A stretch of 64,000 nt of DNA from an uncultured virus (IMG/VR IMGVR_UViG_3300032304_000649) (taxonomy: Duplodnaviria; Heunggongvirae; Uroviricota; Caudoviricetes), in IMG/VR virus record IMGVR_UViG_3300032304_000649; one strand, 5' to 3'. Made by a program: the position numbers and the translations under genes. The notes beneath the pieces were generated by a model, which ran no database searches, was not told the origin of the DNA, and saw only the letters and a program-made list of their open reading frames with translations. Below, one piece after another: positions 1,520-46,943 of this stretch; position 1 is the first letter of the stretch; every line of letters begins with the position of its first letter.

Positions 1520-2038
1520 TTATACTGCGAAATCTGCTGCTGCGGATGTTGCGCCGCCTAACTTATTGCCGTCCTCTAACTTCTGAACGTTGTTTAAACC
1601 TGCTGCAATGCCTTTGGAACCACTTGTATCGTAAGCATACAACGTGATTGAAGCACGACCATAGCAGCCACTATAAAATTCAGATGGATCTAAGATTGGG
1701 TTGAGATCTGCATCTACAACACCAGGTTTCTCATTAGAGTTAGCGTTGATAAAATAATGACCAGCGTAGGTTGCATCATCTTTCTCAGCATCGCCATCAC
1801 GCAAACCGCCTTTGAGCATCTTAGGAACTGTGCCGCCCCATACAGAAGCATTGGCTGTTTTGGTATCTTCAAAAGCCTTATTAAAGCGAGCAATAGTATC
1901 TTTATCTGTTTTAGGGATAAGGATTGACACAGAGTATTTCATTGTGCCATTGGGTGTTTCTGCTGGTTGAAAAACGTGCGCATAAGAGAAACGCACTTTA
2001 CCTGTTACAAATTTAGTTTTTACTGATTTTGCTGGCAT
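1520..2038 (-). CDS. Phage ssDNA-binding protein (DUF2815/APSE gp2.5-like)
   Basis: VRFSYAHVF..KYSVSILIPK..LRDGD..YSGCYGRASI..GLNNVQK, with acidic/aromatic C-terminus. Confidence 0.88.
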   Translation of the reverse strand: MPAKSVKTKFVTGKVRFSYAHVFQPAETPNGTMKYSVSILIPKTDKDTIARFNKAFEDTKTANASVWGGTVPKMLKGGLRDGDAEKDDATYAGHYFINANSNEKPGVVDADLNPILDPSEFYSGCYGRASITLYAYDTSGSKGIAAGLNNVQKLEDGNKLGGATSAAADFAV

Positions 2039-2107
2039 AAAATTACCTTTTTAACGTTAGAGACTGGGCTTCAATAGGGGCCAATCTGTCTACCCTTTAC
2101 TACAAAA

Positions 2108-3737: not shown

Positions 3738-4127
3738 TTATGACTTTAGGGCGGAAATTAGGTTAGCTATCTCTTTGTTAAAATCGACTACAACTTCCGC
3801 TTTAAGATCTACTTTGGTATCGCGGGTTTCGCGATAGTCTTGCTGGAACTGGCCTCTGAGGGCAATCTCGGCTAGACGGCTATTGTAGTTCTTATTGTCC
3901 ACATTGGCTAGGAGTTCCCGTTCCCAAAAGGCTTGGGCGTGGACTAGGGAAAGGTCTAAGGCTTCGGCAAACTCTGGATACTTCTTTTTCCAGGCTTCTG
4001 CCGTTCCTTTTGATATACCCAATTCGGACCATATCATTTTTTGCGATGCGCCCAATTTACCTAGTTCGATCATACGATCGCACATGTCTGGGTCATACTT
4101 AGATTGAGGGTGTTTTTTGGTTGCCAT
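3738..4127 (-). CDS. Putative terminase small subunit / HTH DNA-packaging protein
   Basis: SKYDPDMCDRMIELGKLGAS..ELGISKGTAEAWKKKYPEFAEAL..AQAFWE pattern typical of phage TerS. Confidence 0.65.
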   Translation of the reverse strand: MATKKHPQSKYDPDMCDRMIELGKLGASQKMIWSELGISKGTAEAWKKKYPEFAEALDLSLVHAQAFWERELLANVDNKNYNSRLAEIALRGQFQQDYRETRDTKVDLKAEVVVDFNKEIANLISALKS

Positions 4128-4309
4128 TATTTTTTAGCTGTCTTTGCAGACTGAACAAATGCGTCCTTGGTTGGTGCGCCTTTGGCACCGGGTTTACGCA
4201 TCTTCTCACCGGAGCCGGCTTTGATGCGCTCTCGTTTGGCGTGGATGTTGGCATAAAGGCCGACTGGGCCGCCAGATTTCATTTTGGGAAGGCACTTAAA
4301 ATCATCCAT
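4127..4309 (-). CDS. Small basic phage protein
   Basis: GLYANIHAKRERIKAGSGEKMRKPGAKGAPT; N-terminus resembles ORF 47989. Confidence 0.7.
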   Translation of the reverse strand: MDDFKCLPKMKSGGPVGLYANIHAKRERIKAGSGEKMRKPGAKGAPTKDAFVQSAKTAKK

Positions 4310-4417
4310 AAATTAACTCATAAATTATACACCACAGCTCCAATAGTAACTTATAAGTTACTAACATAGCTACTGGCACGGTTGTTAAATAGAAAATGTC
4401 TTTTGTTGTCATGTGTT

Positions 4418-4498
4418 TGGTGGAGTAGCACGGTACTGCCCCGTGGTCCGCTGGGTTGCATATCAGCCTTGGCCCCTCGTCGAAACTATACCTACCCC
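4418..4498 (-). ncRNA. Mini tmRNA-like RNA (tRNA-like domain only, no tag reading frame)
   Basis: GGGGTAG/CTACTCC acceptor stem with G3.U wobble, ACCA end, TTCGAC after a stemless D-loop, GAC, then T-arm CACGG-GGCAGTA-CCGTG. Confidence 0.8.
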
Positions 4499-4554
4499 AT
4501 TGTAAAAAAGTCGCGACTTTTTTGTAAACTGGTTCAAAAAAGTCGCAACCGATA

Positions 4555-4812
4555 CTAAAATACTGCAGTGATACGGTTAAAGCGCTTGACGCCGTCAACC
4601 AATTGAGCCTCAATTGTGGTGCTGATAAACTTGTTCATCTCAATTGCGTTGTCAATGATTTCGTGCATTGTGGGGAACTGGGGCGCTTTTTCAAGCAGTT
4701 TTTTACCAGCTTCGTCAGCTACTTCCCAGGCTTTTAGCTGGGCGTTGTACTGCTCGGTTAAGAACTCCTTGGAGGTCTTGAGTAAGTCATAGCGTAATTC
4801 AAATGGATTCAT
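4555..4812 (-). CDS. Hypothetical protein
   Basis: 85-aa ORF with AGGAG RBS, downstream of a late-promoter motif. Confidence 0.7.
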   Translation of the reverse strand: MNPFELRYDLLKTSKEFLTEQYNAQLKAWEVADEAGKKLLEKAPQFPTMHEIIDNAIEMNKFISTTIEAQLVDGVKRFNRITAVF

Positions 4813-4886
4813 ATAATTCTCCTGTGTTTGTGTATGTAAAATGGGGGTTCCGGGCGCCTCCCGGCGAGACGTACTGCCCTATACTT

Positions 4887-4916
4887 ACTAATGCAAAATC
4901 TACTGCTTTTCCGCCC
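4887..4916 (-). promoter_or_regulatory. Phage late promoter motif GGGCG-N15-TTGCATTAGT
   Basis: Same motif and spacing as six plus-strand copies. Confidence 0.8.
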
Positions 4917-6402: not shown

Positions 6403-6708
6403 TCATAGTCCTAATTCCTTTTTGATAAACTCTACACCTTTTGAGAAATGATAACGCCAATGTTTTTCGGTTACATGTATTTCATTATAACTCTGTCCAT
6501 TTAAAAAAGCAAGCAAAACCTCCCGTTGTTTAAACGGCATGTTGTTTTCTATCAAATTACGGATGTCTTGGATGTCATCTGGTTCCCAGGGTAGCCAGCC
6601 TTCAATAAGTTGGGTGGATGTACCCTCCACGTCATCTTGCTCTAATGGGTCTGGATCTTCGTCTGATAGTCTTGGAGTAACTGCTTGTATTTTATGTTTT
6701 GTTATCAT
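6403..6708 (-). CDS. Stand-alone sigma70 region-4-like protein
   Basis: DIRNLIENNMPFKQREVLLAFLNGQSYNEI..HFSKGVEFIKKEL resembles the sigma r4 pattern LP.+QREV..L...G.SY.EI...SRA...L+. Confidence 0.55.
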   Translation of the reverse strand: MITKHKIQAVTPRLSDEDPDPLEQDDVEGTSTQLIEGWLPWEPDDIQDIRNLIENNMPFKQREVLLAFLNGQSYNEIHVTEKHWRYHFSKGVEFIKKELGL

Positions 6709-7814
6709 ACTCGTGTGTCAAAAATTGCGGCTGCGTAAATGTTCCCCATACCTGCGGCTAGGCTTAAAATCTTTGGCTTGCGTTTAATCATCATGGGTTC
6801 AGATAAATAGACATCATCTTTTTGGGTGCGGTTTGGAATCGCTGGGACTATGCCTGACTGCAAACTATCTAACAACAGACAGGTTTCCAACAAACCTGAT
6901 GCGCCCATCGTGTGCCCTATCCTTTGTTTGAAGGATGTCGCAATAAACGGCGTATGAAACAACGCCTGTAAAGCCGCTTTCTCAGACATGTTATTTGACT
7001 TAGTCCCTGTACCATGCGTTTTAACAATTTGTATCTCCTCTGTGCTTATGTTACCTGATCGTAATGCTAAGGCGGCGGCTCTTACAAAGCCTTGCCCATC
7101 TTCACGTTGCCCGATTGCGTTGGTGCTTTGTTCACTAGCCACACCAGCGCTTATTAGTTTTGCTTTGGGTTTATTAACTAATACATTCTCATTCTCAAAG
7201 ACGGCAAACACTGCGCCCTGACCGATGTAAAACCCGCCGTTATGGTGGTCAAACGCAGATGGTTTAATTCCCTGCTGTTCTTTATCGTATGTCAAACACG
7301 CGCCCGATTCTCCAAAGAAATGCAATACCTTGTCGTTTATGGTGTCCTCCACGCCCAACACGCACACTCGGTCAAACCCCTGGTATGTCATCAGTTGGCA
7401 TACGTCAGACATAACTTTGAGACTGGATGCACAAGCGCTGGCATCGGTTGTGATCAGATCGTCCGCCCCGCACATCTGCCCGATACGACCAGCATACACC
7501 TGTGTCAGTGTGAGTGGTAGTAGTTTGTAGTCATAGGTCAAACGGCTTTTCCTGATAGCGTATGGGTTGATACCGGCAAAGTGTGCGTTACCAGATGCCA
7601 AGATAAAAGCAGTCTTGCCTTTGCGCTCTCTGAGTGATCTAAGTAATTCCACATCTAACACACGGTCAGCCAGTTTGTGGGGCACATAAACTAGCCCGCT
7701 ATCTTTTTTAGCAAACAATTCTGGAAACCAAAATGCTCTTTGCGGGTAAGCCATTTCATCAAATAGATCAGTATGGGTTGCCGCCACTGTGCGATAGTCT
7801 GTTAAGTAGATCAT
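6705..7814 (-). CDS. Beta-ketoacyl-ACP synthase (FabB/FabF-like)
   Basis: Catalytic triad motifs DASACASS (Cys), KTHGTGT (His), KQRIGHTMGASG (His); GFYIGQGA. Confidence 0.9.
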   Translation of the reverse strand: MIYLTDYRTVAATHTDLFDEMAYPQRAFWFPELFAKKDSGLVYVPHKLADRVLDVELLRSLRERKGKTAFILASGNAHFAGINPYAIRKSRLTYDYKLLPLTLTQVYAGRIGQMCGADDLITTDASACASSLKVMSDVCQLMTYQGFDRVCVLGVEDTINDKVLHFFGESGACLTYDKEQQGIKPSAFDHHNGGFYIGQGAVFAVFENENVLVNKPKAKLISAGVASEQSTNAIGQREDGQGFVRAAALALRSGNISTEEIQIVKTHGTGTKSNNMSEKAALQALFHTPFIATSFKQRIGHTMGASGLLETCLLLDSLQSGIVPAIPNRTQKDDVYLSEPMMIKRKPKILSLAAGMGNIYAAAIFDTRV

Positions 7815-8110
7815 TTTACGTTTTCAAGTGCCTCTTCTACGGTCTTTGGTGTTTGGGTGGAGTGTTTAAACATAAACTCAAATACATCACGGATTGTGCT
7901 TTCTTCCGTAAGTTTCATTAGTTTGACGTCTTCCTCAGACACACCATAGATGTCGGACAAATAAACACCGACCATTAAAAAGTCTAGGCTATCAAGACCA
8001 GTGTCTTTAATTAATGTGTCGAGGCTTTCTATCTTTAATTCATCGGCACTCACAGGTCTTGCGACCTTTACGATGCCGTTCATAATCATTAGCAGTTCTT
8101 GGTCTGTCAT
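7811..8110 (-). CDS. Acyl carrier protein
   Basis: Acidic 99 aa with GLDSLD phosphopantetheine-Ser motif; coupled to the KS gene. Confidence 0.85.
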   Translation of the reverse strand: MTDQELLMIMNGIVKVARPVSADELKIESLDTLIKDTGLDSLDFLMVGVYLSDIYGVSEEDVKLMKLTEESTIRDVFEFMFKHSTQTPKTVEEALENVK

Positions 8111-9450
8111 GCTGTTTCTTTCATGTTAAGTGATTCTAATAACGCTTCTTGTAAACTTATTTTACCATTTAAAACTCGTATCACTTGTTCATCAATTGTT
8201 TTACTAATTGTCAAATGATGAATGATAACCGGTTTTTCCTGCCCTTGCCTGTAAATCCGTGCGTTGGCTTGGATGTAGTTTTCTGAGCTCCATGGTAAAT
8301 CAAACCACACAGTCTGTGCTGTTTCTCCAACGTTGCACTGTAGATTGAGCCCAATACCCCCGGACTGGGGATGGGCAAGGAGCATACGAATTTTGCCATC
8401 ACGCCACGCTTGGATGTTGTCATCATCCAGCACCACTGCTTCGGGAAACTTCTCTTGGATTCTCGCAAGCGCATGCTTGAAGTGGTAGAACACGAGTGTG
8501 GGGGACGAGGACTCTTCCATGATCGACTCAAGGTACTCCAATTTAACATCGTGTACTTCTTGCCAGTCTCCGTTTTCCCCATACACCGCGCCTGATGTGA
8601 ACTGTAAGAGTTTGCCCGCCAGTGCTGCCGCTGTTGGAGCCGTGATGAGTTCACCATTGATACTAGCGACCATGTCTTTTGTAAGTGTGTCATATTGTTT
8701 ACGCTCCGCCGAGTTTATGTCTATTTTGTGATACAACTTAGTTAGTTTGGGTAGTGTCAAATAATCCTCAGCCCGCAGACTAAAACATATGTCGCTAATC
8801 TTATCCTGTATCCTTTTATCCGCCCCTGGCTGGAGCGCCCACTTATACACAACGTGTGTATGCCTATTCATCTGCCCCGGTGTCAGGTACTTTGACCTGA
8901 ACGCCGTTAAGCTCGTTTCTAACCTCTGCCCCAAATCCAAAATACCTACCTGTGACCACAAGTCAGCCATCCCTTGAGGTGTCGGAGTCCCTGTCAGAAT
9001 AATACGTCGCTCGAAGCTCTTTAAGTGTTTCTTCAAGCTCTTGAATCTTTTCGTCGAAGGATCTTTGAAGCGACTCGACTCGTCGATTATCAGATTGTTG
9101 AATTGCATCTTTGGTTGATCCAACAACCATATCAAGTTCTCGAGATTGACTACGTACACGCTCGAAGAACTCTTCAACGCTGCTAACCGTTGACTCGGGG
9201 TGCCCAGTATCTTGGCTACCTTCAGGTGTTGTAGGTGTTCCCATTTCTGTGTTTCCTGTTCCCATACTGTTTCCGCCACCCTCTTTGGCGCTACGATAAG
9301 AGTTTTCCCCTTGAGTTGCTCCGCGATAATCGTTAGTGTCGTCGCTGTCTTCCCAAGTCCAGGGGGTAGAAACAGACCCAAGTTCGGCACCGACAGCGCC
9401 CGGGATATGATCTCCTGCTGATACTGGTGTAGTTGTGTTCTCTTTAGCAC
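8107..9450 (-). CDS. SNF2-family (SF2) DNA helicase
   Basis: PGLGKT, IIDESS, LTGTP, GIGLNLQ, QANARIYRQGQ. Confidence 0.92.
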   Translation of the reverse strand: MLKRTQLHQYQQEIISRALSVPNLGLFLPPGLGKTATTLTIIAEQLKGKTLIVAPKRVAETVWEQETQKWEHLQHLKVAKILGTPSQRLAALKSSSSVYVVNLENLIWLLDQPKMQFNNLIIDESSRFKDPSTKRFKSLKKHLKSFERRIILTGTPTPQGMADLWSQVGILDLGQRLETSLTAFRSKYLTPGQMNRHTHVVYKWALQPGADKRIQDKISDICFSLRAEDYLTLPKLTKLYHKIDINSAERKQYDTLTKDMVASINGELITAPTAAALAGKLLQFTSGAVYGENGDWQEVHDVKLEYLESIMEESSSPTLVFYHFKHALARIQEKFPEAVVLDDDNIQAWRDGKIRMLLAHPQSGGIGLNLQCNVGETAQTVWFDLPWSSENYIQANARIYRQGQEKPVIIHHLTISKTIDEQVIRVLNGKISLQEALLESLNMKETA

Positions 9451-9853
9451 GTCGGTTTCCTTTTGAGGCGTTTTCTTTTTTAGTTAACAAGGTTAGATTC
9501 CATGGAACGTGTAATCCACATACATCTTTTCCTTGCAACGGTTCAATATGTTCAACTTCATATAATTCCTCCATAAAAATTGTGGCTAGTTGGGCGCGGC
9601 GATACCATACTTCTATTTCCGGTTTTAAATGCAACTTGCCCCATTTTAACATGCGGTTTAATTTTGCAACACGATACCGACTACGTTTAGCATTTGCTTT
9701 GTCTCTATTATTTTTAGACCAGCTTGCTGAGTATTCCCGATCACAAAGTTTACAATACGTTTTTAATTCATCTTGTCTGTATTTGTCTTTATTAAATTCG
9801 CTATAGCTTTTTAACTGTTTGCATTTTGGGCATTGCTTGTTTAATAAAATCAT
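8963..9853 (-). CDS. HNH-type endonuclease with an N-terminal Zn ribbon; the C-terminal part overlaps the helicase
   Basis: CPKC..CKLC; EVEHIEPLQGKDVCGLHVPWNL..ENASKGNR. Confidence 0.75.
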   Translation of the reverse strand: MILLNKQCPKCKQLKSYSEFNKDKYRQDELKTYCKLCDREYSASWSKNNRDKANAKRSRYRVAKLNRMLKWGKLHLKPEIEVWYRRAQLATIFMEELYEVEHIEPLQGKDVCGLHVPWNLTLLTKKENASKGNRRAKENTTTPVSAGDHIPGAVGAELGSVSTPWTWEDSDDTNDYRGATQGENSYRSAKEGGGNSMGTGNTEMGTPTTPEGSQDTGHPESTVSSVEEFFERVRSQSRELDMVVGSTKDAIQQSDNRRVESLQRSFDEKIQELEETLKELRATYYSDRDSDTSRDG

Positions 9854-10509: not shown

Positions 10510-12229
10510 TTTATTCCGTGTGCCTTTTCTATTGCTCTGGCAAACGCAACAATGTCACCTTCCGTTTGCATTCTAATTCCCGTAATCTCTTGATCTGTAA
10601 GGGGTTTTGACTTGTAGATTCCGCATAAAAATGGCCTTGGCTCCGTGACTACGGCGTCCTCATAGCCAGGTTGGTATGGCGCCTCTGCTACATAGTTTGG
10701 TTTCATTTTTTCCTCATCATGTTTAATTATCCACTGTAACGCAAGAGTCAATGTGTTAAATGCTGGTGATTTTATTGACTCATTTTCCCAATAATAACTA
10801 GGCACATCGGATACTTGCCAAGTGTCCCCAACCCATTTAGCGGTTCTTTCATGGATTGTTTGTAAGTTCATTCTATTTCCTCATACCAGCCACGTACATA
10901 AAAAGCATCCCCAAAGTCTTTAACTAACTTCTCAGGGTAGCCGTTCTCAATTAGCCACTGCACAGTGTTGTCGACGTGCTCGGGTATCTCTTTAGGAAAT
11001 CCGTACAACCATCCTTTGGGTGGATCAATCATTTTAACTTTCATTTCTCACTCGCTTTCTTTAATCCTTCAGCATATCCAATCTCATACCCGCCTTGATG
11101 TGCCATAGCCTCGTGATGACTGCATTTTTCTAATTGGTTTTCCAACTCCGCTATGCGGTTTGCTTGCTGACGCAACATTCTAGGCACTCGATTATCACAC
11201 CCAACTGCTTGCAATACTCGATCTAGTTCATCTGCTAATTCGTATGCGTTCATTTCTCTTGTGCCTTTCTTAGTATTGCTCTAGCAAAGTCTTTAATTCC
11301 TTCTAATGCTTTGTCAGGATTGTTCAGTTGCCACAATTCAAAAGCGTAAGCAAACTCCTCTATTTCATCATCTGTTAGTGTCTTTGCTGGATGGGTGTAG
11401 AGTGGTATTTTTTCCATCTGCGCTATGGTTGGTGTATGCCATGTAGTAGGCTTTGCCCACTCTAGTTTGCGTTCTTCTACGTTGATGTACGCTACTGGTT
11501 CATTGTTCATTTTTAATCCCATGATGTTCTTCAACTGTTCTGACAAAATCACGCATGCTCCACATTTGGTTGGTCTTATTCATGTTGATAATCATTACGC
11601 GGATCTCTTCGTCGGTCATTGGTGTTCGTTTGACGGCGTCTTCGTACTCTTTCACTGTGTGGTACATACTAACTCCTTCCAATTTGTTTCTTCCGGCATG
11701 ATGTTGATCGTGGTGCCCTGCTCCTTTGCCTTGGCGATCAGGTTATTGAGCACCGATGCGCCGTACAGGTGTGAGCCATAATTATGTTTGTAGCACCGGT
11801 ACACAGACCCCGAGGCGCCGTGAAAGTCGTAGTATTGTTTCTCTTCATCTACGCCCACGACGCCACTGTTCATCTGCCACGAGTCTGATCCGGCGTACCC
11901 ACCATACCAGCAACCAAACACGCGGTAGAGATGCGTGTCGCCAGCAATTATCTCAACCATTACCCACTTGTCAGGTGTGTTCATAACCCAAACCTCCTCG
12001 ATGGTGTGCGTTTGCCAAATCTTACGTATATCTTTAATGCGCACAGACGTGCATACGTTTGGTTGCGCCACCCTTGCGCGGCTCTTCGGTACATCTGCAT
12101 ACGGGCGCGTTTGTAATGATTTGGTTTCCCATTTTTGCTAATAAACACAATGCGCCGTTGCCCTACTTTACCGAATATGCTGGTAAAACCGTTGCGCAAG
12201 ATGGTTTTCTTAAAACGAAAAGGTTTCAT
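10506..12229 (-). CDS. Cluster of small hypothetical genes (10506-10871, 11041-11253, 11250-11552, 11500-11682, 11652-11984, 11981-12229)
   Basis: Coupled short ORFs typical of phage middle regions, e.g. TPDKWV..WYGGYAGSDSWQMNSG. Confidence 0.55.
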
Positions 12230-12594
12230 CGTTTTCGTTTCTCAATAGTTACAAACACCGCTACCACGTCCTCTTCGTCACTTACGCTTACATGCGGGTA
12301 ATATTTGTTTTTCTTTACAAAGTCATACACCCAGCCATTGAGCGCAAAGTACGGGCGCCCGTTCTCATCATTTAACAACTGCACAAGATCCATGTTAGCA
12401 ATCGGACTGATGCCAGACCCAAGTGCTTTTAGAAACGCTTCTTTGGCGGCGAATCGAGTGGCTAAGTAGTCTGCTGGTTTACCTCTGCGCTCGTACTCTT
12501 TCTGTTCGTGCAAACCCAAAATGTTTAACGGCACTCGTAGGTTTTTAAACCTGTTTACCTTGACAATATCAACACCTACCCCTGCGATCATCAA
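12226..12594 (-). CDS. acpS: Holo-ACP synthase (4'-phosphopantetheinyl transferase)
   Basis: GVGVDIV, LATRFAAKEAFLKALG, GRPY, HVSVSD. Confidence 0.9.
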   Translation of the reverse strand: MMIAGVGVDIVKVNRFKNLRVPLNILGLHEQKEYERRGKPADYLATRFAAKEAFLKALGSGISPIANMDLVQLLNDENGRPYFALNGWVYDFVKKNKYYPHVSVSDEEDVVAVFVTIEKRKR

Positions 12595-14918: not shown

Positions 14919-14947
14919 ATACTAATGCAAACTTTGGGTATTGTCAA
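14919..14947 (-). promoter_or_regulatory. Sigma70-type promoter TTGACA-N17-TAGTAT with TTGCATTAGT core, upstream of the primase
   Basis: Minus strand TTGACAatacccaaagtTTGCATTAGTAT. Confidence 0.75.
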
Positions 14948-15238
14948 GAAGTTGGACAAGTCGGACAATTTGGGCATAAAGTTGGACACTTTTTTATTCC
15001 ATGAAATCAACAACTTGGCTCTAAAATTGTCCGACTTGTCCGACTTGTCCAACTTCTTTGCACAATTTACCATACCTCTATTAAATTTAAATTTTTTTTC
15101 TGTGAGTAAAAAAGTGAAATAAAGTCGGACAAGTCGGACAAGTCGGACAATTTTTCGATTAACTCCTTGATTCTGCTCAATAAAAAATTGTCCAACTTTC
15201 GTGGTTTTTGAAAATGGAAGTTGGACAAGTCGGACAAT
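14947..15238. repeat. Iteron array A (AAGTYGGAC units in both orientations around an AT-rich core); probable replication origin
   Basis: Tandem AAGTCGGAC/AAGTTGGAC and inverted GTCCGACTT units next to the primase gene. Confidence 0.85.
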
Positions 15239-15395
15239 CATAACTTTTGGTTATATAGCGCGTAAATAACATGCGCAAATAGATATAAAAGAACTGCAAG
15301 CAAAGCCCTGTTGACCCATCTTTGGGTTTTTTCCTCGATGGGGTCAAAATCAATCATTTGCTTTCGATGTGGTTTACCCATGTCATCACCGACTT

Positions 15396-20733: not shown

Positions 20734-20884
20734 GGTTATTTTGCTTTCATTTGTTGGTCAATAAATGCTTGTGCCTCGTTGAGTTTGTCATTGAATCCAT
20801 ACATCTCAGCAAATTCCTGATCGGGTGCTAGGTCAATGGCTAAGTTCATAAGCATATCAATAATTTTAATTGCCTGATCCATGT

Positions 20885-21967
20885 TTAAACACTCCCAGAG
20901 AACATATAGTTATTATCGGTAGCCCACTTTACAAACTCTTTATTGGTTGCAACAATGGCTTTTTTCTGTGTTCTCATAGCACTCGTAGCAAATAAACCCT
21001 GTGATTCTTTGCTTAATCGATTCATGTATGTAAGCCACTTAGGTAATGTTTCCTTGTCGATCTGTTGAACTGCCGAATACACAAGCATACAAACTGCTGA
21101 GGGTGATTTGGGAATGGGTGCTTTTGTTGGCTCTTTAATAATGCTTTCCCAATCGGGCAACTGCTCTGACAACTGCACAATGGTCAATGTGTCATAGGTT
21201 GCACGATCCCCAATAGTGCCTTTAAGTGCGTGTCCGAGAATGTCGATCCCTAATGGCTTGACCTTTTTAATAATGTCGCTTGCCTTTGACAAACTGCGTG
21301 GTGTCGCAAAAGCGGGGCGGGGTGTGCGTGGATCATAGATATACTCATTGTCTTTTGGATTCGTATAATCTTCAAAACTCGCTAACATCTGCGGGAATTG
21401 CTTTACAGTCTGCAATATTTCGGGGGCTATATCGTTATCCAATGCAAAGTTTTCGAGCCATTCGTCAGCCGTTGGTTTACGCACCTTTACAACTGTTAGG
21501 CGGTTGCGTGCATGAGGGGGCAACATATCGCCTATACCCTCATTGGCTAGGTTAGTGGTTGCAAATACAATCGATCCATTCGGTAGTGAGTAAGTGCCTA
21601 GTTTGCGTTCTAGCATCAAGCGTAAACAAGCGTTCATTACTGCCTTACTTGCCTTGCCGATCTCATCAAGCATTAATACGATTGGTTTGTCATGGTGAAA
21701 ACCAAATTCCTCATTAGGAATAAATGAGCATACCTCTGCCCCGTTTAAACTACGGATCTTAGGCACTAGAAAATCGCCCACATCTTTGGTTGTCATATCA
21801 CCATAACAATAATGATATTTTTCCCCTAGTTTTGCTCTTAATGCGTGTAGGATTGATGATTTGCCAATACCCATCTCACCCTGAGCCAATACAGTCGTAT
21901 GCGTTCCTACTGCTTGGATAAGGTTCGTTGTATCCTGTAATGAAATGGTTTTATATAAGTTTGCCAT
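20885..21967 (-). CDS. MoxR-like AAA+ ATPase
   Basis: GEMGIGKS Walker A, LMLDE Walker B, FATTN, ATPRS. Confidence 0.88.
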   Translation of the reverse strand: MANLYKTISLQDTTNLIQAVGTHTTVLAQGEMGIGKSSILHALRAKLGEKYHYCYGDMTTKDVGDFLVPKIRSLNGAEVCSFIPNEEFGFHHDKPIVLMLDEIGKASKAVMNACLRLMLERKLGTYSLPNGSIVFATTNLANEGIGDMLPPHARNRLTVVKVRKPTADEWLENFALDNDIAPEILQTVKQFPQMLASFEDYTNPKDNEYIYDPRTPRPAFATPRSLSKASDIIKKVKPLGIDILGHALKGTIGDRATYDTLTIVQLSEQLPDWESIIKEPTKAPIPKSPSAVCMLVYSAVQQIDKETLPKWLTYMNRLSKESQGLFATSAMRTQKKAIVATNKEFVKWATDNNYMFSGSV

Positions 21968-22100
21968 ATGGCTTTGCCTTTCGTTTCGTGGTTGGTAATT
22001 TGATAATGCCTAATAATGTTAATAATGCTTTCATACGTTAAGAATAATGCCTAAAAATAAAATAAACAATATGGTCAATGCAATTTTTTCTAATAAAGTT

Positions 22101-24056
22101 TCATTGTTCATGTTTAAACGCACCCCCTCTTAGTATGTCTAAATAAATGTCATTGATCTTAAACACAATGTTGTCGATCACTTGCTTACCATATCTGTCG
22201 CACATCTTGTAATAAGTTTTATAGTCATCGTAATCTTTACCAATGTCGGCTATGGTTTGCACGATCTCATAAAACTGTGGCTCTGTGAGTGTCGGTCTAT
22301 GTTGGTCAATAATCACGATCTAACCCCTCGATCAGTTCATTTATGCGGGTGTGGTAAAGTTCGCCCACCCTTTCCAATTCCTCAGAATCAGCCCCATAAA
22401 TGTAAAGGGTTTCGTCTAGTATTGCCTGTGCCTCTTTCACATCATCACACACCCGCAAATCGTCTAGGATTTTATTAATTGGGTTAGCCATGTTTAAACA
22501 CTCCCTATAAGTTCGTTGTCCCAATAGCGTTTAACTGTGTAGCCTAATAATTCAATTTGGGTAGCCATTAAACTATTGACCCCCATATAAATTAAATTGC
22601 CACTTTCACAAAAAACCTCAAATCTAAACTTAGTCATGTTTAAACACTCCCCTATTCGGTTTCGGTTTCGAGTTCACTCGGATCAGTCGTATAGTCGCAA
22701 CTGTCGAGCCAATCATTAAACCCACATTGGTAAGCAATCGGGTCTAGTTCCTTTAACACTCTGCTAGGGTCAAACTCTATCCCCGCTATGTTTATGGGTG
22801 AGTAGAGTTCATCTAGCATCTCGTCATAAAGTTCATACGCTTTTGATTCGTCAATATATTCAATCATAATCTGCCTCTTTGGTTGTAATGGTTTACTGCC
22901 CCCGCTTGTATAGGCGGGTCTAGGTTGGTTTAGAAAATAGCCCCTTTCATTGGTTGGTTAGTCTGCTATGTCATCTCTTACAATAAAGCCAAAAGCAAAG
23001 GAAGTAAAGATTAGCCCCACTACGCATATGGCTATTGCTTTTTCTAGCACCACATAAAGACATAACACGAATATGGCGGTGAGTATGACTGTGGTGATGA
23101 TCAATGGTAAATTACGCATTTTTAGCCCTTTATTGTTTAAGTATTTCACAAATAAAACCCTGTTTTTCCATCTGATTAATTAAAATCTCGATCTCATGGT
23201 TTAGCATGGTGTCAAGGTTGAAAACCTTACTCACTTTTAAATCGTGCCTACTGCAAACCAATTCATATCCAAACATTTTTAATTGCCCCCTATGTTTAAA
23301 CATGGCGGGGTTTCCCCCGCCCTGTGGTTGATTAAATAAAACCTGTCAATTCGTCAAAGAATACCTGTGGCTTTTCTGTGGTTTTCTCTGTTGCGTGTCG
23401 ATCCGCTAACCATTGGTTAATGTGTCTGCTTGTGGTCTTAGACCACTTTTGAGATGTCCTGTAATAGTTCCCTGTATTCATCTCATAAAACGCAACAGGG
23501 GTTTTATAACTAAACAATAAATCCCCCATGGCTAGGGATAAAACATTTATATTTTTACTGATTGGATTAAGTTCGATTTTCATAATTTTAGTTCCTATGG
23601 TTAGTGTTTAAACATGGCGGGGGATAGCCCCGCCCTGTGGTTAGATTGTCGGTTTACCGAGTGCCTCGGCTAATTGGTTATAAACTGCGGTTTTACTGCC
23701 CTTGATCCCAAATTGTGCCTTGATGATCGAATAGGCGGTTTTGCCTCGGCTCATCTTTAGCCCTTTAATCTCCAATTTGAGCATGGATAGCAAGGTTAGA
23801 TTCCTGAAATGGTTTATTTGTTCGGGTGTGTTTAAAATCATGGTTTCATTCTCCTGTGGTGTGTTTAAACATTACTCAATAAATCATGCTCTACGCAATA
23901 ATCCCAAAATGCTAGGTCTAGTGCCTCTAAAATTCGGCTCTCTATTGGTAGGTCTGTTAAATCCTGAACATAAATAAATTTGTCCTGAGTTTGTGCGTAT
24001 TCTTTGGCATTGTCTAGGTTTAAAAATTGCTCTTTGTAGTAGGCTAAGGTTTTCAT
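22101..24056 (-). CDS. Array of small early genes (22101-22316, 22306-22491, 22652-22867, 22958-23149, 23332-23583, 23641-23841, 23865-24056)
   Basis: 60-85-aa ORFs with strong RBS, several separated by repeated hairpin modules. Confidence 0.6.
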
Positions 24057-24119
24057 GGTTTCGTTTTCCTATTGGTTGGGGTGTTTAAACATGGCGGGGG
24101 TTTGCCCCGCCCTGTGGTT
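23293..24119. repeat. Three ~38-bp intergenic repeats TGTTTAAACATGGCGGGG-loop-CCCCGCCCTGTGGTT (23293, 23605, 24082)
   Basis: Near-identical copies, each directly after a minus-strand stop codon. Confidence 0.9.
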
Positions 24120-24727
24120 TATTCCTCTGTGTCCTCATCATCTAAAGCAAAATCATGGCTCATCTCACCATGACCTAGAGGACAACGGGGGGTAGCCAAT
24201 TTGAGCCATTTACTACTTATCCGCATGGTGTAGCCACAATGGACACAATCACACTTATGTAAGCGGGTAGATTGCTTTTTATAGGTAGCGTTTAGGGTAG
24301 CGTGTGGATATTCGCCCTCATACTTAACCCATTGTAGAATCGCCTGTTTTAAACCCTCGGTTGCATTGGTTGAGGTAGGTTTGCCCTCTAAACCTACGGC
24401 ATAGGCACAATCAGCAAAAACCTTGTTATGACCCTCTTTATTGCCTACTGTGGCGTGGCAAAGTTCGTGAATCAAAACATCAATTACCCGCACCGAATCG
24501 GACAAACTCGGCACAATCACAATTTCAGTAGTGTTATCGCTAGACATTGAGGCGGGATAGCACTCACCCAATGTAAAACGCTTTTGGTGTTTTTTGGTAT
24601 GAATCCCGCCACTTGATTGTGAACATGAAAGCCTAATATTGGCGGGGATTGTGTAGCCCTTACTAGCAAAGTGAGGGCGGAGATATTTATTAGTAATGGT
24701 GTTTAGCCATTGTTCTCTATTGTTCAT
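24119..24727 (-). CDS. SprT-like metalloprotease, probable first early gene
   Basis: LIHELCHA..GHNKVF; C-terminal CxxC and C. Confidence 0.75.
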   Translation of the reverse strand: MNNREQWLNTITNKYLRPHFASKGYTIPANIRLSCSQSSGGIHTKKHQKRFTLGECYPASMSSDNTTEIVIVPSLSDSVRVIDVLIHELCHATVGNKEGHNKVFADCAYAVGLEGKPTSTNATEGLKQAILQWVKYEGEYPHATLNATYKKQSTRLHKCDCVHCGYTMRISSKWLKLATPRCPLGHGEMSHDFALDDEDTEE

Positions 24728-25181
24728 AATGTCTATTCCTTATAGGTTAGTGTTTAGTTAGTGTGATTGTTATTAACCTGTTTTTACTACTGCCTTTTCT
24801 CACCCTTGAACTTAATCCTAGTGTTTTCCCGCTAACCACAATCACACTATTAATACTAAACATATGGCATAGAAACGCAAGGTTTTTATTCGGTTTTATT
24901 CCACAATATGAGAAAAATTACAGTTGGCGGTTATAACTTTTAGTTATGGTTTCGGCTCTCTTTATACTTAGGGTTTACCCTTACAAAATCGAGATCGTGG
25001 GGCGGGTGATACCTACCCCTCATCTCACAATTAAACTCAATGGCGGGGCTATAAAGGGGCTTGCTGAGGCTTTTCATATTGTGAAATAGTGGGTAATCAC
25101 TAACTCGGCAAAATGCCGTTTTCTCGCCTCACCGCCACTTTGCCCCTCGCACCCGCATGGTTATTTATCTATATGCCTCAA

Positions 25182-25344
25182 TGCGTATATACGCACCTAC
25201 GCATATTGCACCGCAACATGATGCACCATATTGGTGCATTGTTTAAACGGGGCGGGCTGGTTATATGCGTATGTGCGTATATACGCAAGCACGCATATTG
25301 CACCGCAACATCATGCACCATATTGGTGCATTGTTTAAACGGGG
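25182..25344. repeat. Two 71-bp direct repeats (92-bp period) built from palindromes
   Basis: TGCGTATATACGCA..ACGCATATTGCACCGCAACAT.ATGCACCATATTGGTGCATTGTTTAAACGGGG at 25182 and 25274. Confidence 0.9.
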
Positions 25345-25534
25345 GTTATGTTGCACCGCACCAATGTTGCACCGCACCAATTAGGGGTTGCGTTTCACAA
25401 TGTGAAATCGCATCTCACAATGCGGAATAGGGGGCTTTTCCTAATTGTCGATACCCTTTTTTTAGACCCCCACCCCCCACGGCCCGGGGGCCCCACAGAA
25501 CGCAAGTTTGTATATTTTTGTAATTTTTTAAAAA

Positions 25535-25813
25535 AGAAGTTGGACAAGTCGGACAATTTTGAAAGAAGTTGGACAATTTTTTATTTAGCAAAATCATAGA
25601 CTTAATCGAAAAATTGTCCGACTTGTCCGACTTGTCCGACTTTATTTCACTTTTTTACTCACTTTAAAAAAAAGATAAATTTAATTGGTAGGGTAAAAGT
25701 TGCAAAGAAGTTGGACAAGTCGGACAAGTTGGACAATTTTTGAGTTAAGTATTTGATTGGATTAGAAAAAAAATTGTCCAACTTCCCAAATTTTTTTAAA
25801 TAAAGTCGGACAA
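25535..25813. repeat. Iteron array B, inverted copy of array A
   Basis: 25602-25662 is the exact reverse complement of 15102-15162; same 9-mer units. Confidence 0.9.
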
Positions 25814-25832
25814 TTTTTTATTTTTTAAAATG

Positions 25833-32147: not shown

Positions 32148-32588
32148 ATGGCATTTGATTTATCACAAAAAGAAGACCCAGATCTTCGCTCGGAAGCGGA
32201 ATGCTTTCCGGACATTGATCCAGGTATTGAAGTAGCCGGAGACCGTGTTTTAGTGCAGTTACGACGGGAGAAGGACAGAAGCAAGGGCGGAATCATTTTA
32301 GTTGATGAAACCCGGCAAACGTTACGTTTCAATGAGACTGTAGCTAAAGTACGCCAGATTGGCCCACTAGCATATAAGTCGCCAGATACCCTAGAGCCTT
32401 GGATTGAAGGCCCTTGGTGCAAAGAAGGCGATTTGGTTAGAACCATCAAGTACGGCGGTGACCGTTTTGTTGTTAATCCGGATGATGAAGGCGCCCCCGT
32501 GGTGTTTATTACCATCCAAGCACGTGAAATCATCTCACGCATTAAGTCGTTTGACCATGCGCAGAAGATGAAAGCGTTTGTAGACTAA
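32148..32588 (+). CDS. GroES-like co-chaperonin
   Basis: GDRVLVQ..SKGGIIL..KVRQIGP..CKEGDLV..KYGG. Confidence 0.85.
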   Translation: MAFDLSQKEDPDLRSEAECFPDIDPGIEVAGDRVLVQLRREKDRSKGGIILVDETRQTLRFNETVAKVRQIGPLAYKSPDTLEPWIEGPWCKEGDLVRTIKYGGDRFVVNPDDEGAPVVFITIQAREIISRIKSFDHAQKMKAFVD

Positions 32589-36589: not shown

Positions 36590-37387
36590 ATGTCAGCAAG
36601 ACCATCAAATACATTCGTATCACCCCCACACTCCGTAACCGTCCAAGGCGCTTACGAGCCATTTAACCTTCAAGTAGCTCGTGGTCAAATCATGGGTCAC
36701 TCTGGTTTTTCTATTTTTGGATACAATCCAGACTTAGACACATCAGAGGAATCCGTTTGGCCAGATGGTGGTACAGTACCACACCCAACGACAGCTTCTG
36801 TATTATCTATTGTTTCAACAAGCACAGACGACGACGGCAGTCCTGCGGGCACTGGCGCACGTACAGTTTACATTGAAGGCGTAAACGGCAACTATAATGT
36901 TGTTAGTGAAACAGTTGTTTTAAATGGAACAACGGCGGTTTCAACAACAAATTCATACTTGTATATTAATTTCTTTTACGTAGCCACAGTGGGAAGTGGT
37001 GGCGCTAACGCAGGTGAGATTACAGCAAAAGTAAGCACAACTTTGTATGACCTTATTGCAACAGGGTATAACAACAGCGTAACAGCTCACTATTGTGTGC
37101 CAGCCGGATACACTGCGTATTTAGTGGAAGGCAGCATTAGTGCAGGACAAGCATCTGGCTCATCATCTGTTACCGGGTTTTTAAAACAACACGGACCCGA
37201 TGGAATTTTACGTATTGCTGCTGTTACAACACTAAACAACGGTTTTGCTAACTACAATTTCCAATTTCCAATCGTAGTTCCAGAAAAGAACTGTATTGGC
37301 GCGACGGCAATTGGTGCGGCTGCAAACAACTCAGTCAGTGCGTATTTTAATATTGTATTAATTAAGAACGATAGTCAAGCGGCCTAA
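36590..37387 (+). CDS. Virion structural protein
   Basis: 265 aa, GTGARTV..GYTAY. Confidence 0.65.
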   Translation: MSARPSNTFVSPPHSVTVQGAYEPFNLQVARGQIMGHSGFSIFGYNPDLDTSEESVWPDGGTVPHPTTASVLSIVSTSTDDDGSPAGTGARTVYIEGVNGNYNVVSETVVLNGTTAVSTTNSYLYINFFYVATVGSGGANAGEITAKVSTTLYDLIATGYNNSVTAHYCVPAGYTAYLVEGSISAGQASGSSSVTGFLKQHGPDGILRIAAVTTLNNGFANYNFQFPIVVPEKNCIGATAIGAAANNSVSAYFNIVLIKNDSQAA

Positions 37388-41525: not shown

Positions 41526-42923
41526 ATGGCAAGCATAGTCGTAACAGGCGATACATCAGGTGCAATAACTATTGCTGCCCCAGCGGTAGCAGGAACAAAC
41601 ACCCTAACCTTACCCGCAAGCACAGGAACCCTAGTCGTTACTGGTGGAGCGCAGACTATTGAGTTTGCAGACGGCTCTGCTTCTGCTCCTTCAATTACGA
41701 ACTCAGGCGATACCAACACAGGTATGTTCTTCCCAGCAGCCGACACTATTGCCTTTACAGAAGGTGGTACTGAGTCAATGCGTATTGACTCTAGTGGTCG
41801 AGTTGGTATTGGTACAACTTCGCCAACGCAACAATTAGATGTTACAGCAACAAGTTCTGCAACCTCAATTATTGTTGCCCAAAACACAACAGCAACTAGT
41901 GGTGGCGCACAACTAAGGGCTGGTAATCCGCAAAACCTTTTTATCATTGGTACTGATAGCAATGCTGGTGGATTAACTGGAACAGCAAACTCAAGTTTTC
42001 TTTACACATCTAGCACATCTCCGATTGTTTTTCTGCCAAACGCTACAGAACGGATGCGTATTGACTCTAGTGGTAATGTAGGTATTGGTGCCAGTCCTAG
42101 TTTTCAATTAGATGTTGTTAGAGCATCGGCATCTACACCACAAGTTAGAGTTCAAAATACAACAACAACATCACAAACTGTTAGCTTAACAGCAGCAAAT
42201 GATGCTGGAACAAGTGTTGGAATGGGTGTTTTTGGTTCTGCTGCTGGTACTGCTGGAATGATTGGTGCTGGTGCTCCTATTATTGGAACTGCAGCAACTG
42301 AATTAAATATATATGCTAACAACGGAAGTGGTGTTATTAAGTTTGCTACTGGCGGCTTAACAGAACGGATGCGTATTGACTCTAGTGGTAATTTGTTGGT
42401 TGGTACTACAAATTCAAGCGGTCAAGCAGGTATAGGTTTTAAAGTAATCCCATCCGCAACATATCCACAATTAAGTATGGTTGGCTCTGCAACAACAAAC
42501 GCAGCCACAACTTTAGAGATGTATTCTACTGGTGCTGCTGCTTATCGTTTTTATGTTGGCTATGGTGGAACTGTTTTTGCTACAAATACAACCATTTCTG
42601 CAATTTCAGACCAGCGTTTAAAAGAAAACATTGTTGATTTAGATGATGGTCTTGATTCATTAATGGCACTAAAGCCACGCAAGTTTGATTGGAAAGAAGG
42701 CAAAGGCAAAGACATTAAAGGCGATAGAGGGTTTATCGCTCAGGAATTTGAAACTGTATTTCCTGATCTTGTTGATGAATGGAAAGACCCAGCACCTGAA
42801 GGCGAAGAGCCATACAAATCTGTTCGTGCTGACTTAATTCCTGTGTTGGTAAAAGCAATCCAAGAACAACAGCAAATCATCAACGACCTCAAAGCCCGCA
42901 TAGAAACTTTGGAGAACACATAA
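41526..42923 (+). CDS. Tail fibre with C-terminal S74-type auto-chaperone
   Basis: Three MRIDSSG repeats; SDQRLKENI..GFIAQE..LVKAIQEQ. Confidence 0.85.
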   Translation: MASIVVTGDTSGAITIAAPAVAGTNTLTLPASTGTLVVTGGAQTIEFADGSASAPSITNSGDTNTGMFFPAADTIAFTEGGTESMRIDSSGRVGIGTTSPTQQLDVTATSSATSIIVAQNTTATSGGAQLRAGNPQNLFIIGTDSNAGGLTGTANSSFLYTSSTSPIVFLPNATERMRIDSSGNVGIGASPSFQLDVVRASASTPQVRVQNTTTTSQTVSLTAANDAGTSVGMGVFGSAAGTAGMIGAGAPIIGTAATELNIYANNGSGVIKFATGGLTERMRIDSSGNLLVGTTNSSGQAGIGFKVIPSATYPQLSMVGSATTNAATTLEMYSTGAAAYRFYVGYGGTVFATNTTISAISDQRLKENIVDLDDGLDSLMALKPRKFDWKEGKGKDIKGDRGFIAQEFETVFPDLVDEWKDPAPEGEEPYKSVRADLIPVLVKAIQEQQQIINDLKARIETLENT

Positions 42924-45693: not shown

Positions 45694-46523
45694 ATGACTG
45701 AAATCACCGCAGAAGAAATTGCTCGCCATTACTCGGCAGCAATGGATTCAGTAAACCTCATTAATGCTGGTAAGCCCGAAGATATGGCTGATGATGAGTG
45801 GGCTGATACTGTTGCTCGCAACAAAGCTCACCTAGTTATTATGCTGGCTAAAGACTTTTGGACAACGGAAGATTTAGCACCACTACAACAGGCCGCACAA
45901 TAATGTCCGACCTAATAGATAAAAACGAAGCCGCGCTATCCGCGCACGAGGCGGTCTGTGCCGAGCGCTACGCCGGCATCAACGCCAGACTAAAACGCAT
46001 CGAGCAGATCCTAGTCGGGTCGGTGGGATTCATTGTGGCGACCATGATCGCCCTACTCATAAAACTACACTAATGGATAATGTCAGACCAATTTGGCTTT
46101 TTAGAAGGAGCAAAATCTCTTGGTAGCACCCTTGACTCCGCGCGCGGGGTCAGCAAGGAGTTATCTACCAGCATCGCCAACGTACAAAAAGAAGCAACCG
46201 ACCTAGCCCAGCAACGCGCCCAAGAGCGCATCAGGGCACAAAAGGTTCACGTCGACCAGACCATACTAAAGGCATTTGACGAGTTCAAAATCATCGAGGA
46301 AGTCAAGCGCCTCGAGCAAAAGATGAAGGCCGAGGTAACACGAAACTACGGCCCCAAGGCGTGGGATGACATACAGGTCATCAAGGCGCGTCTCTTAAAG
46401 GAGAAAAAAGAAAATGAAAAGCTGTTTAACAAAGACCTACACGAAATTAAAAGAGTACAGCTCTATTGCTTTATCGTCGCTGGTGTCATTGCTTGGTACC
46501 TTACGTGGGGTCATAAGGGGTAA
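45694..46523 (+). CDS. Three small genes (45694-45903, 45903-46073 with C-terminal TM, 46080-46523 with C-terminal TM)
   Basis: Coupled ORFs before the lysis genes; HEAVCAERY motif. Confidence 0.6.
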
Positions 46524-46529
46524 AAAATA

Positions 46530-46943
46530 ATGTTCCCGATCACAGCGCTGTTTGACATCGGCACCAAGCTAATTGACAAGCTGATCCCGGACCCAGAGGC
46601 TAAGGCCAAGGCACAACAAGAGCTCATCAAGCTCCAGCAAGAGGGCAAGTTAGCCGAGCTAAACGCCGACAACATTGAGGCACAGGAGCTAACCAAGCGC
46701 CAGCAGGCCGACATGGCAAGCGACTCGTGGCTATCCAAGAACATCCGCCCGATGACACTGATCTTTATACTGATCGTGTACACCATATTCGCCGCCATGA
46801 GCGCCGCAGACATCGAGGTCAACAACAACTACGTTGAGCTCTTGGGTCAGTGGGGCATGCTGATTATGTCATTCTATTTCGGCGGACGCTCGCTGGAGAA
46901 GATCATGGAAATGAAGAAAGGCAAAAGTGAACCTAAGCCCTAA
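46530..46943 (+). CDS. Holin (3TM/GTA-type)
   Basis: KLIPDPEAKA..SDSWLSKNIRP..FYFGGRSLEK. Confidence 0.8.
   Translation: MFPITALFDIGTKLIDKLIPDPEAKAKAQQELIKLQQEGKLAELNADNIEAQELTKRQQADMASDSWLSKNIRPMTLIFILIVYTIFAAMSAADIEVNNNYVELLGQWGMLIMSFYFGGRSLEKIMEMKKGKSEPKP

Follow-up and report, generated by a model that had tools for sequence, protein, structure and literature searches.

The locus examined here raised the question of whether a phage can carry a tmRNA reduced to its tRNA-like domain (TLD), and what such an RNA would do in an infected cell. The window analyzed, a stretch of 64,000 nucleotides, represents a tailed phage genome whose replication arm lies on the minus strand and whose virion arm lies on the plus strand. 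A first-pass annotation had described within it an 81-nt mini-tmRNA with no mRNA or tag domain, and had proposed that this RNA is expressed late, can be charged with alanine, and either sequesters host SmpB and EF-Tu or acts on stalled ribosomes without adding a degradation tag.

Sequence and Fold of the Element

The sequence quoted in the first-pass annotation was found as described when the minus strand was read from 4498 to 4418: the acceptor stem has 7 bp and includes G3·U70, the discriminator is A73, CCA is encoded, and the D-loop, the GAC connector, and the T-loop lie further inward (Table 1). The AG of the D-loop fits the G at T-loop position 2. A P2 arm occupies the place of the pseudoknots and tag ORF; the interval had been counted as about 29 nt plus a G, and the 30 nt that lie between UCGAC and GAC are not filler but fold as P2. 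Pair probabilities for P2 in single-sequence folding were weak (0.44–0.51 for the outer helix, 0.74 for the inner), and the folding energy of the element was no better than that of shuffled sequences (z 0.37). No tag frame was found in the element, and P2 is closed in cis by a short loop. The element is almost certainly a TLD-only tmRNA, as judged from its sequence and that of its relatives.

Table 1. Coordinates of the element, its parts, and its neighbors in the window, and of two carrier contigs with both tmRNA forms.
Feature	Position	Strand	Evidence or remark
TLD-only (tag-less) tmRNA gene, 81 nt, standard order (predicted)	4418..4498	-	Sequence, held-out covariance model, family covariation
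Acceptor stem 5' strand G1-G7, with G3	4492..4498	-	Pair probabilities 0.85-0.99
Stemless D-loop, 12 nt, ending UCGA	4480..4491	-	Sequence, D/T-loop covariation
P2 arm: outer helix, tandem purine mismatch, A-rich internal loop, 2-bp inner hairpin (4458-4467)	4449..4479	-	
GAC connector and T-arm (5 bp, GGCAGUA loop)	4429..4448	-	Sequence, alpha_tmRNA match, fold, covariation
Acceptor 3' strand with U70, discriminator A73, encoded CCA	4418..4428	-	Sequence
Promoter-like motif GGGCG-N15-TTGCATTAGTA, heading the inferred unit	4886..4916	-	Kept in 8/8 clade loci checked
85-aa ORF, first gene of the inferred unit	4555..4812	-	No PHROG or Pfam match
16-bp hairpin and U-run just 5' of the RNA	4509..4550	-	Fold -21.7 kcal/mol
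60-aa basic ORF, phrog_16028, downstream neighbor	4127..4309	-	PHROG match; also in L114, L151, L168
Terminase small subunit (terS), last gene of the inferred late unit	3738..4127	-	phrog_309, E 2.7e-13
Contig G016:C1, both forms	mini 41861-41933; full-length tmRNA 88065-88440		Tag ends ALAA
Contig G024:C1, both forms	mini 46486-46567; full-length tmRNA 77588-77979		

Detection by Standard Tools and by a Held-Out Model

ARAGORN reported 0 genes in the window, with no call at the element at default or relaxed thresholds, and no Rfam model (RF00023, RF00005, and RF02544 included) reached its gathering score there. The check with Rfam and ARAGORN that the annotation had proposed thus yielded one partial match, 15.2 bits to the alpha_tmRNA model over the 3' half of the element and below gathering. 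A generic TLD descriptor, however, marked the element as its sole site in the window, and a covariance model (R1), for which 24 sequences from other phages were used and the window's clade and mycobacteriophage DS6A left out, recovered it at full length with 39.8 bits (E 3e-7), the runner-up in the window scoring 10.2 bits. Because it was the only descriptor site and stood so far above the next R1 match, the element is far beyond chance despite the silence of the standard tools. The R1 match and the covariation described below both supported its identity as a tag-less TLD.

Full-length copies were also matched by R1 in the cultured phages LuckySocke (92.7 bits), BRock (84.1 bits), phiPsal1 (80.3 bits), and Riptide (64.0 bits), whose records carry no annotation of the mini RNA. 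These cultured carriers include the Streptomyces phages LuckySocke and BRock as well as Pontimonas phages, the Streptomyces hosts being S. lividans and S. mirabilis. The model missed one 101-nt form (L004), and when the element was compared by blastn with 50,697 phage records, only short chance matches appeared. In local mode, RF00023 passed its gathering score in 21 of 33 relatives' contigs, the window copy staying below threshold; it was the only Rfam family covering the minis (11/20 loci).

Assignment to known RNA classes was considered and rejected. The element has neither the D-stem nor the anticodon arm of a tRNA-Ala, with ARAGORN silent and no match to RF00005; it lacks the pseudoknots and tag frame of a canonical tmRNA (RF00023) and falls below that gathering score; and for mt-tmRNA (RF02544) there was no Rfam match and no smpB in the carrier contigs.

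Conservation in the Window's Clade

A pattern scan of IMG/VR returned 30 loci, 29 of them near-identical to the window and one an unrelated 101-nt form. Identity to the window within the clade was 0.99 over the 81-nt element (n = 28), against 0.83 in the upstream 60-nt block and 0.76, then 0.68, in the two successive 60-nt blocks downstream (n = 27 each), conservation falling sharply at both edges. Substitutions inside the element were confined to loop and mismatch positions. In one clade member (L030), a tRNA-Thr gene lies 5 nt before G1 and replaces the upstream hairpin.

Compensatory changes were provided by the syntenic relatives L114, L151, and L168, which share the 60-aa downstream ORF. 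In a 12-sequence alignment including the window, 14 of 21 pairs had changed on both sides; acceptor and T-stem were 100% paired and P2 83%, and acceptor pairs 5 and 6 showed double-sided changes among close relatives. Stem covariation in related phages, which the annotation had named as a test, was therefore present in acceptor, T-stem, and P2. The GGCAGUA T-loop, read earlier as typical of alphaproteobacterial and mitochondrial tmRNA, proved an unreliable guide to origin, since the syntenic relatives carry UUCGACA, UGCGAAU, or UGCGACU instead. The nearest cultured relatives are the Caulobacter phages RW, GB2A, RLK, and KcrB (capsid 66%), which does not in itself establish the host of the window phage. 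A search with R1 found the RNA in none of five capsid relatives (0/5), a search that included no positive control, R1 elsewhere finding DS6A and four cultured phages. Because the closest cultured phages are without the RNA, it appears dispensable in the window's lineage.

A Tag-Less Family Across Viruses

A TLD descriptor with an 18–48-nt middle, in which acceptor pairs 1–3 and two T pairs are fixed by the pattern, returned at least 120 loci in IMG/VR. Among the 120 matches listed, 115 paired 7/7 in the acceptor, 120 paired 5/5 in the T-stem, and 110 paired at least 5/6 in P2. The 108 unique sequences among these had paired acceptors in 103 cases, T-stems in 108, and P2 in 99, where a strand-swap control gave 13.6, 11.3, and 13.3, respectively. 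With a 49–79-nt middle, both stems passed in 43 of 101 loci, and the others resemble 3' ends of ssrA that match the 5' pattern by chance. Among the matches listed, passing lengths spanned 68–129 nt and peaked at 81–83 nt, and the union of scans amounted to at least 203 distinct viral sequences of 68–129 nt. A metagenome scan limited to the window's T-loop gave 57 loci, 36 of them unique, of which 27 passed.

Applied to GTDB assemblies, the same descriptor gave 119 parsed loci among the matches listed, only 8 of which passed (5 with P2); the 111 that failed the stems were mostly ssrA 3' ends with chance 5' matches. The class is therefore virus-enriched and rare in bacterial assemblies. An alignment of 24 rows with 11-nt D-loops, picked for clean alignment, had 97% of its cells paired, against 39–52% in slid controls, and 18 of 23 pairs had changed on both sides. 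On these scans, the putative tag-less mini-tmRNA is a common, virus-enriched, and mostly unannotated RNA family in phages, and the RNA predicted in the window is one member of it and not an oddity.

Longer tag-less forms of 94–129 nt with structured inner domains (L004 at 1501-1601, L099, and a subset of L192-L285) and minimal forms of 68–70 nt (L107, L067, and L072) were also seen, and possibly reflect several independent reductions.

Alanine Identity, Elbow, and Inner Motif

Alanine identity was assessed in a scan whose pattern contained no acceptor letters (at least 120 loci, 119 parsed, 79 unique), with the 5' strand taken as the best-pairing 7-mer. Among the matches listed, a full acceptor was found in 77 of the 79 unique sequences, and all 77 had G1-C72, G2-C71, and G3·U70; U70 and A73 were present in 79/79, and pairs 4–7 were free to vary while G3·U70 was fixed. 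CCA was encoded in only 14 of the 79 listed. This pattern indicates that the predicted AlaRS identity elements are under selection in the family.

The D-loop purine before the conserved G covaried with T-loop position 2, in agreement with the tRNA 18-55 contact. Across 150 sequences, uncorrected for kinship, the D18/T55 combination was G/U in 98, A/G in 42 (the window's type), crossed in 2, G/C in 6, and unassigned in 2. Contacts between D- and T-loop have been reported as required for SmpB binding, and SmpB binds this elbow in tmRNA, according to the accessible text of PMC3968760. An inner motif, consisting of an A-rich loop and a small hairpin, occurred in 60 of 73 members of the 79–85-nt class among the matches listed, versus 13 in shuffles, the motif having been defined after the alignment was viewed. 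Our impression was that it resembles the internal loop found distally in P2 of full tmRNAs. A kink-turn was tried as its identity and set aside as a poor fit by eye.

Locus and Predicted Expression

Reading from the promoter-like motif, the unit runs through the 85-aa ORF, the hairpin, the RNA, the 60-aa basic ORF, and terS (Table 1). The motif occurs six times in the window versus 0 in 100 shuffles, with a pattern written after the copies had been seen; the other five copies all lie in the virion arm (28565, 31895, 35846, 47907, and 55370, plus strand). A sigma-70-family protein is encoded by the phage (15921-16547, minus strand), and the six-copy motif is likely its target. Late expression of the mini RNA in the window phage, already proposed in the first-pass annotation, gained support and is likely because its promoter motif is common to virion genes; the RNA would be processed from the late unit that the motif heads. 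The upstream hairpin may be a terminator-like or 3'-stabilizing hairpin of the upstream mRNA, and may attenuate the unit; a hairpin of different sequence stands at the same place in L012 and L021. Look-alikes of the 85-aa ORF in the Atlas were all viral hypotheticals with scores below 0.9, and flank comparisons did not find it as a family-wide partner.

Contigs from freshwater RNA libraries covered the element in 4 of 4 runs examined, out of 20 RNA runs listed, the runs having been chosen for holding the region. Two of the four contigs end about 30 nt past the CCA, one reaches 4121, and one enters a different downstream sequence. As such contigs carry no strand, end, or level information, this cover is a weak hint of transcription.

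Two variant motif copies, with TTGACA for GGGCG, stand before the genes for the exonuclease (3695) and the primase (14930). The RNA contigs had no cover over terS, which was not taken as evidence. A perfect 20-nt AT-rich palindrome lies downstream of the RNA at 4344-4363, with variant palindromes in the clade. A sigma70-like TTTACA/TACAAT site abutting G1 was rejected as the promoter: transcription from it would begin within the stem, and L012, L014, L021, L024, and L030 have lost its -10.

Partners and Neighbors

The observation in the first-pass annotation that the window holds no smpB was borne out among the ORFs scanned, a part of all ORFs (42 against PHROGs, 28 against Pfam), and smpB was not found in the clade's near-complete contig G001. 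Across the family it was found in 0/50 carrier contigs and 0/12 near-complete ones, with controls positive in 10/14, so any SmpB partner would be the host's. Integrase occurred in 3 of 50 carrier contigs, the nearest about 9 kb away and none in the window's clade. No conserved partner gene emerged, as the 103 loci listed fell into 74 flank clusters; the largest shared cluster in an all-against-all comparison held 8 of 151 loci. Only 7 of 74 lineage representatives had a PHROG head or packaging neighbor, and the late context is therefore claimed for the window phage and not for the family. Genes for tRNA lay in the examined flank at 20 of 103 loci (83 without), and an RNA ligase, RtcB-like ligase, or polynucleotide kinase flanked 3 of 74 lineage representatives. 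Mini and full-length tmRNA occurred together in 2 of 33 contigs (Table 1). A separate tag-coding piece or permuted gene, which the annotation had named as a finding that would overturn its reading, was not found.

Other Features of the Window

A beta-ketoacyl synthase (6705-7814, minus strand), an adjacent 99-aa ORF (7811-8110, minus strand), and a phosphopantetheinyl transferase (12226-12594, minus strand) form a small acyl-synthesis set in the phage; no family name was found for the 99-aa ORF, which may be a carrier protein. The window's only Rfam match at gathering was a DUF2815 RNA motif (2036-2096, minus strand) upstream of the gene for an ssDNA-binding protein. Iterated 9-nt repeats with inverted copies fill two blocks 10.6 kb apart (14946-15263 and 25534-25831), possibly replication origins. 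Many intergenic repeats with GTTTAAAC, some followed by GC-rich hairpins, occupy 20866-25344, and an 83-nt direct repeat lies at 25170/25262, near the strand switch. An endonuclease VII-like ORF (8963-9853, minus strand) has a long C-terminal frame that shares about 490 nt with the helicase gene (8107-9450), and a GroES-like protein is encoded at 32148-32588 (plus strand), just downstream of one late-motif copy.

Comparison with Known Systems

The closest described RNA is that of mycobacteriophage DS6A, a "TLD only" tmRNA of "standard, no CDS" form according to the accessible portions of Hudson et al. 2014 (PMC4131195) and Nawrocki et al. 2025 (PMC11915505). We located it at JN698994 28478-28560, an 83-nt RNA compared with 81 nt in the window. 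Both share the standard order, G3·U70, A73, and a P2 with an A-rich loop and small hairpin, and both were found by R1, which was trained on neither (59.7 bits for DS6A, 39.8 for the window). They differ in the T-loop (GGCAGUA with an AG D-loop in the window, UUCGAUU in DS6A), in the connector (GAC and CAC, respectively), and in the CCA, which is encoded in the window's element, unlike in the DS6A RNA; the phages are unrelated. An RNA of the DS6A type has been reported to inhibit endogenous tmRNA in E. coli, perhaps via SmpB titration, and secondary sources disagree as to whether this was done with the DS6A RNA or with "a similar molecule" (PMC4131195, PMC11915505, each as accessible in part). 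The 2025 database counts 79 tmRNAs from phages and a total of 9 standard no-CDS sequences, with one phage case seen in its accessible text (PMC11915505). A search of the full-text literature, covering few subscription journals, found no report of a widespread phage tag-less tmRNA family, though Table S2 of PMC11915505 may list more. The RNA type and the titration idea are thus already in print for one phage, and what is new is the scale of the family.

Mitochondrial tmRNA and plastid tmRNAs of about 65 bp in Mallomonadaceae likewise have a TLD without a tag frame (PMC11915505, in part). These organellar RNAs (RF02544, plastid) are mostly permuted (72 permuted no-CDS sequences), have a dedicated nuclear SmpB, and are the only tmRNA of their compartment, whereas the phage mini would act beside an intact host tmRNA. 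Canonical one-piece tmRNA (RF00023), full-length phage copies included, shares all TLD features with the mini; the mini has no pseudoknots, resume codon, or tag, and a much shorter P2. A functional analogy, with no homology, can be drawn to RqcH/RqcP alanine tailing, in which untemplated alanine serves as a ClpXP degron (on Ala tails as degrons, see the accessible text of PMC8012679). RqcH is a protein that works on split 50S with tRNA-Ala, whereas the mini would be an RNA on 70S with SmpB; TLD with SmpB has been reported to yield polyalanine without mRNA in vitro (PMC3929946, in part).

Proposed Mechanism and Alternatives

The window RNA may well compete, as a DS6A-type RNA charged with alanine, for host SmpB and non-stop ribosomes, a reading to which we give about even confidence. 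Host tRNA-processing enzymes would cut the RNA from the late transcript, host AlaRS would charge it with alanine, and host SmpB and EF-Tu would bind the charged form. The resulting complex would be a rival of host tmRNA both in binding SmpB and in occupying the vacant A site of non-stop ribosomes, and the nascent chain would be moved onto the alanine with no reading frame offered. Because the chain would be accepted without a frame, SsrA tagging would fall and the chain would end in at least one untemplated alanine. Release would need a host factor, such as peptidyl-tRNA hydrolase after drop-off, or ArfA/ArfB. At the sequence level, competition is supported by the TLD fold, the elbow, selection on AlaRS identity, the lack of a tag frame and of a phage SmpB, and the virion-type promoter motif. 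The reported inhibition of E. coli tmRNA by a DS6A-type RNA and the polyalanine made by TLD with SmpB in vitro also speak for it, as does, weakly, the cover by RNA-library contigs. The earlier expectation that no degradation tag would be added may be wrong, because of the polyalanine made by TLD with SmpB in vitro (PMC3929946) and the ClpXP recognition of Ala tails (PMC8012679), as far as the accessible text of each goes.

Several points weigh against competition. G3·U70 could serve stability or EF-Tu protection without a ribosome role, and a block of rescue could hurt the phage's own translation. The terminator-like hairpin just upstream and the lack of the RNA in the closest cultured phages also count against it, and the presence of mini and full-length tmRNA in two phages is awkward for a simple inhibitor.

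A more tentative possibility is an RNA-only rescue shunt, in which the charged mini would hijack SmpB to add untemplated Ala tails on non-stop 70S ribosomes, redirecting quality control during virion assembly in many hosts and habitats. Whether a tag-less tmRNA can rescue ribosomes has been stated as an open question for mitochondria (PMC11915505, in part).

It is rather unlikely that the RNA is a pure SmpB sponge, whose off-ribosome binding would starve and destabilize host tmRNA while charging only shields the 3' end. This mechanism has been suggested in print for DS6A-type RNA, which reportedly inhibits in chargeable and unchargeable form alike (PMC4131195, in part), and both the conserved elbow and the lack of a phage smpB fit it. 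However, since the TLD inhibitor was reported to work uncharged, the invariant G3·U70 is not obviously needed by a passive sponge; together with A73, the 81–83-nt peak, and the inner motif, it suggests constraints beyond SmpB binding. Charged TLD·SmpB is, moreover, active on ribosomes in vitro (PMC3929946, in part).

We regard as unlikely a decoy role, by which the RNA would draw off anti-phage toxins or sensors that recognize tmRNA or tRNA acceptor ends. CoCoNuT systems have been predicted, and only predicted, to bind tmRNA via SmpB-like folds (PMC10542128, in part); some carriers have nearby tRNA or ligase/kinase repair genes; and patchy presence among related phages and coexistence with a full tmRNA fit a counter-defense gene. 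No defense system has been shown to target the TLD, however, most loci have no nearby tRNA, and strict alanine identity is explained no better by a decoy than by the other readings.

That the element is one half of a two-piece tmRNA, with its coding piece elsewhere or in trans, is highly improbable. The alpha-type T-loop and the infection of Caulobacter, an alphaproteobacterium, by the closest cultured phages point that way, as most Alphaproteobacteria have two-piece tmRNA according to the accessible text of a paper on two-piece phage tmRNA (PMC9004378); against it, the order is standard and not permuted, P2 closes in cis, Rfam's permuted-form models gave no match, and translation of all six frames yields a single tag-like peptide, which forms the C-terminus of ORF 36590-37387. 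Scarcely credible is a non-functional remnant, either an att-site ssrA fragment or a captured gene in decay: ssrA often serves as an integration site, the descriptor's bacterial matches are mostly ssrA 3' ends, and the folding energy is unremarkable, but both ends and P2 covary, the few integrases are never adjacent, conservation drops at the edges, and the reading is effectively refuted by stem covariation, identity elements, and D/T covariation.

Implications

If the shunt were true, the family would be an RNA counterpart of RqcH tailing, its 81–83-nt length and inner motif would reflect ribosome-contact constraints, and it would offer a tractable model for the tag-less mitochondrial tmRNA. 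Phage interference with trans-translation is largely unexplored, and the copies in cultured Streptomyces phages, together with the 81-nt size, make this family experimentally tractable.
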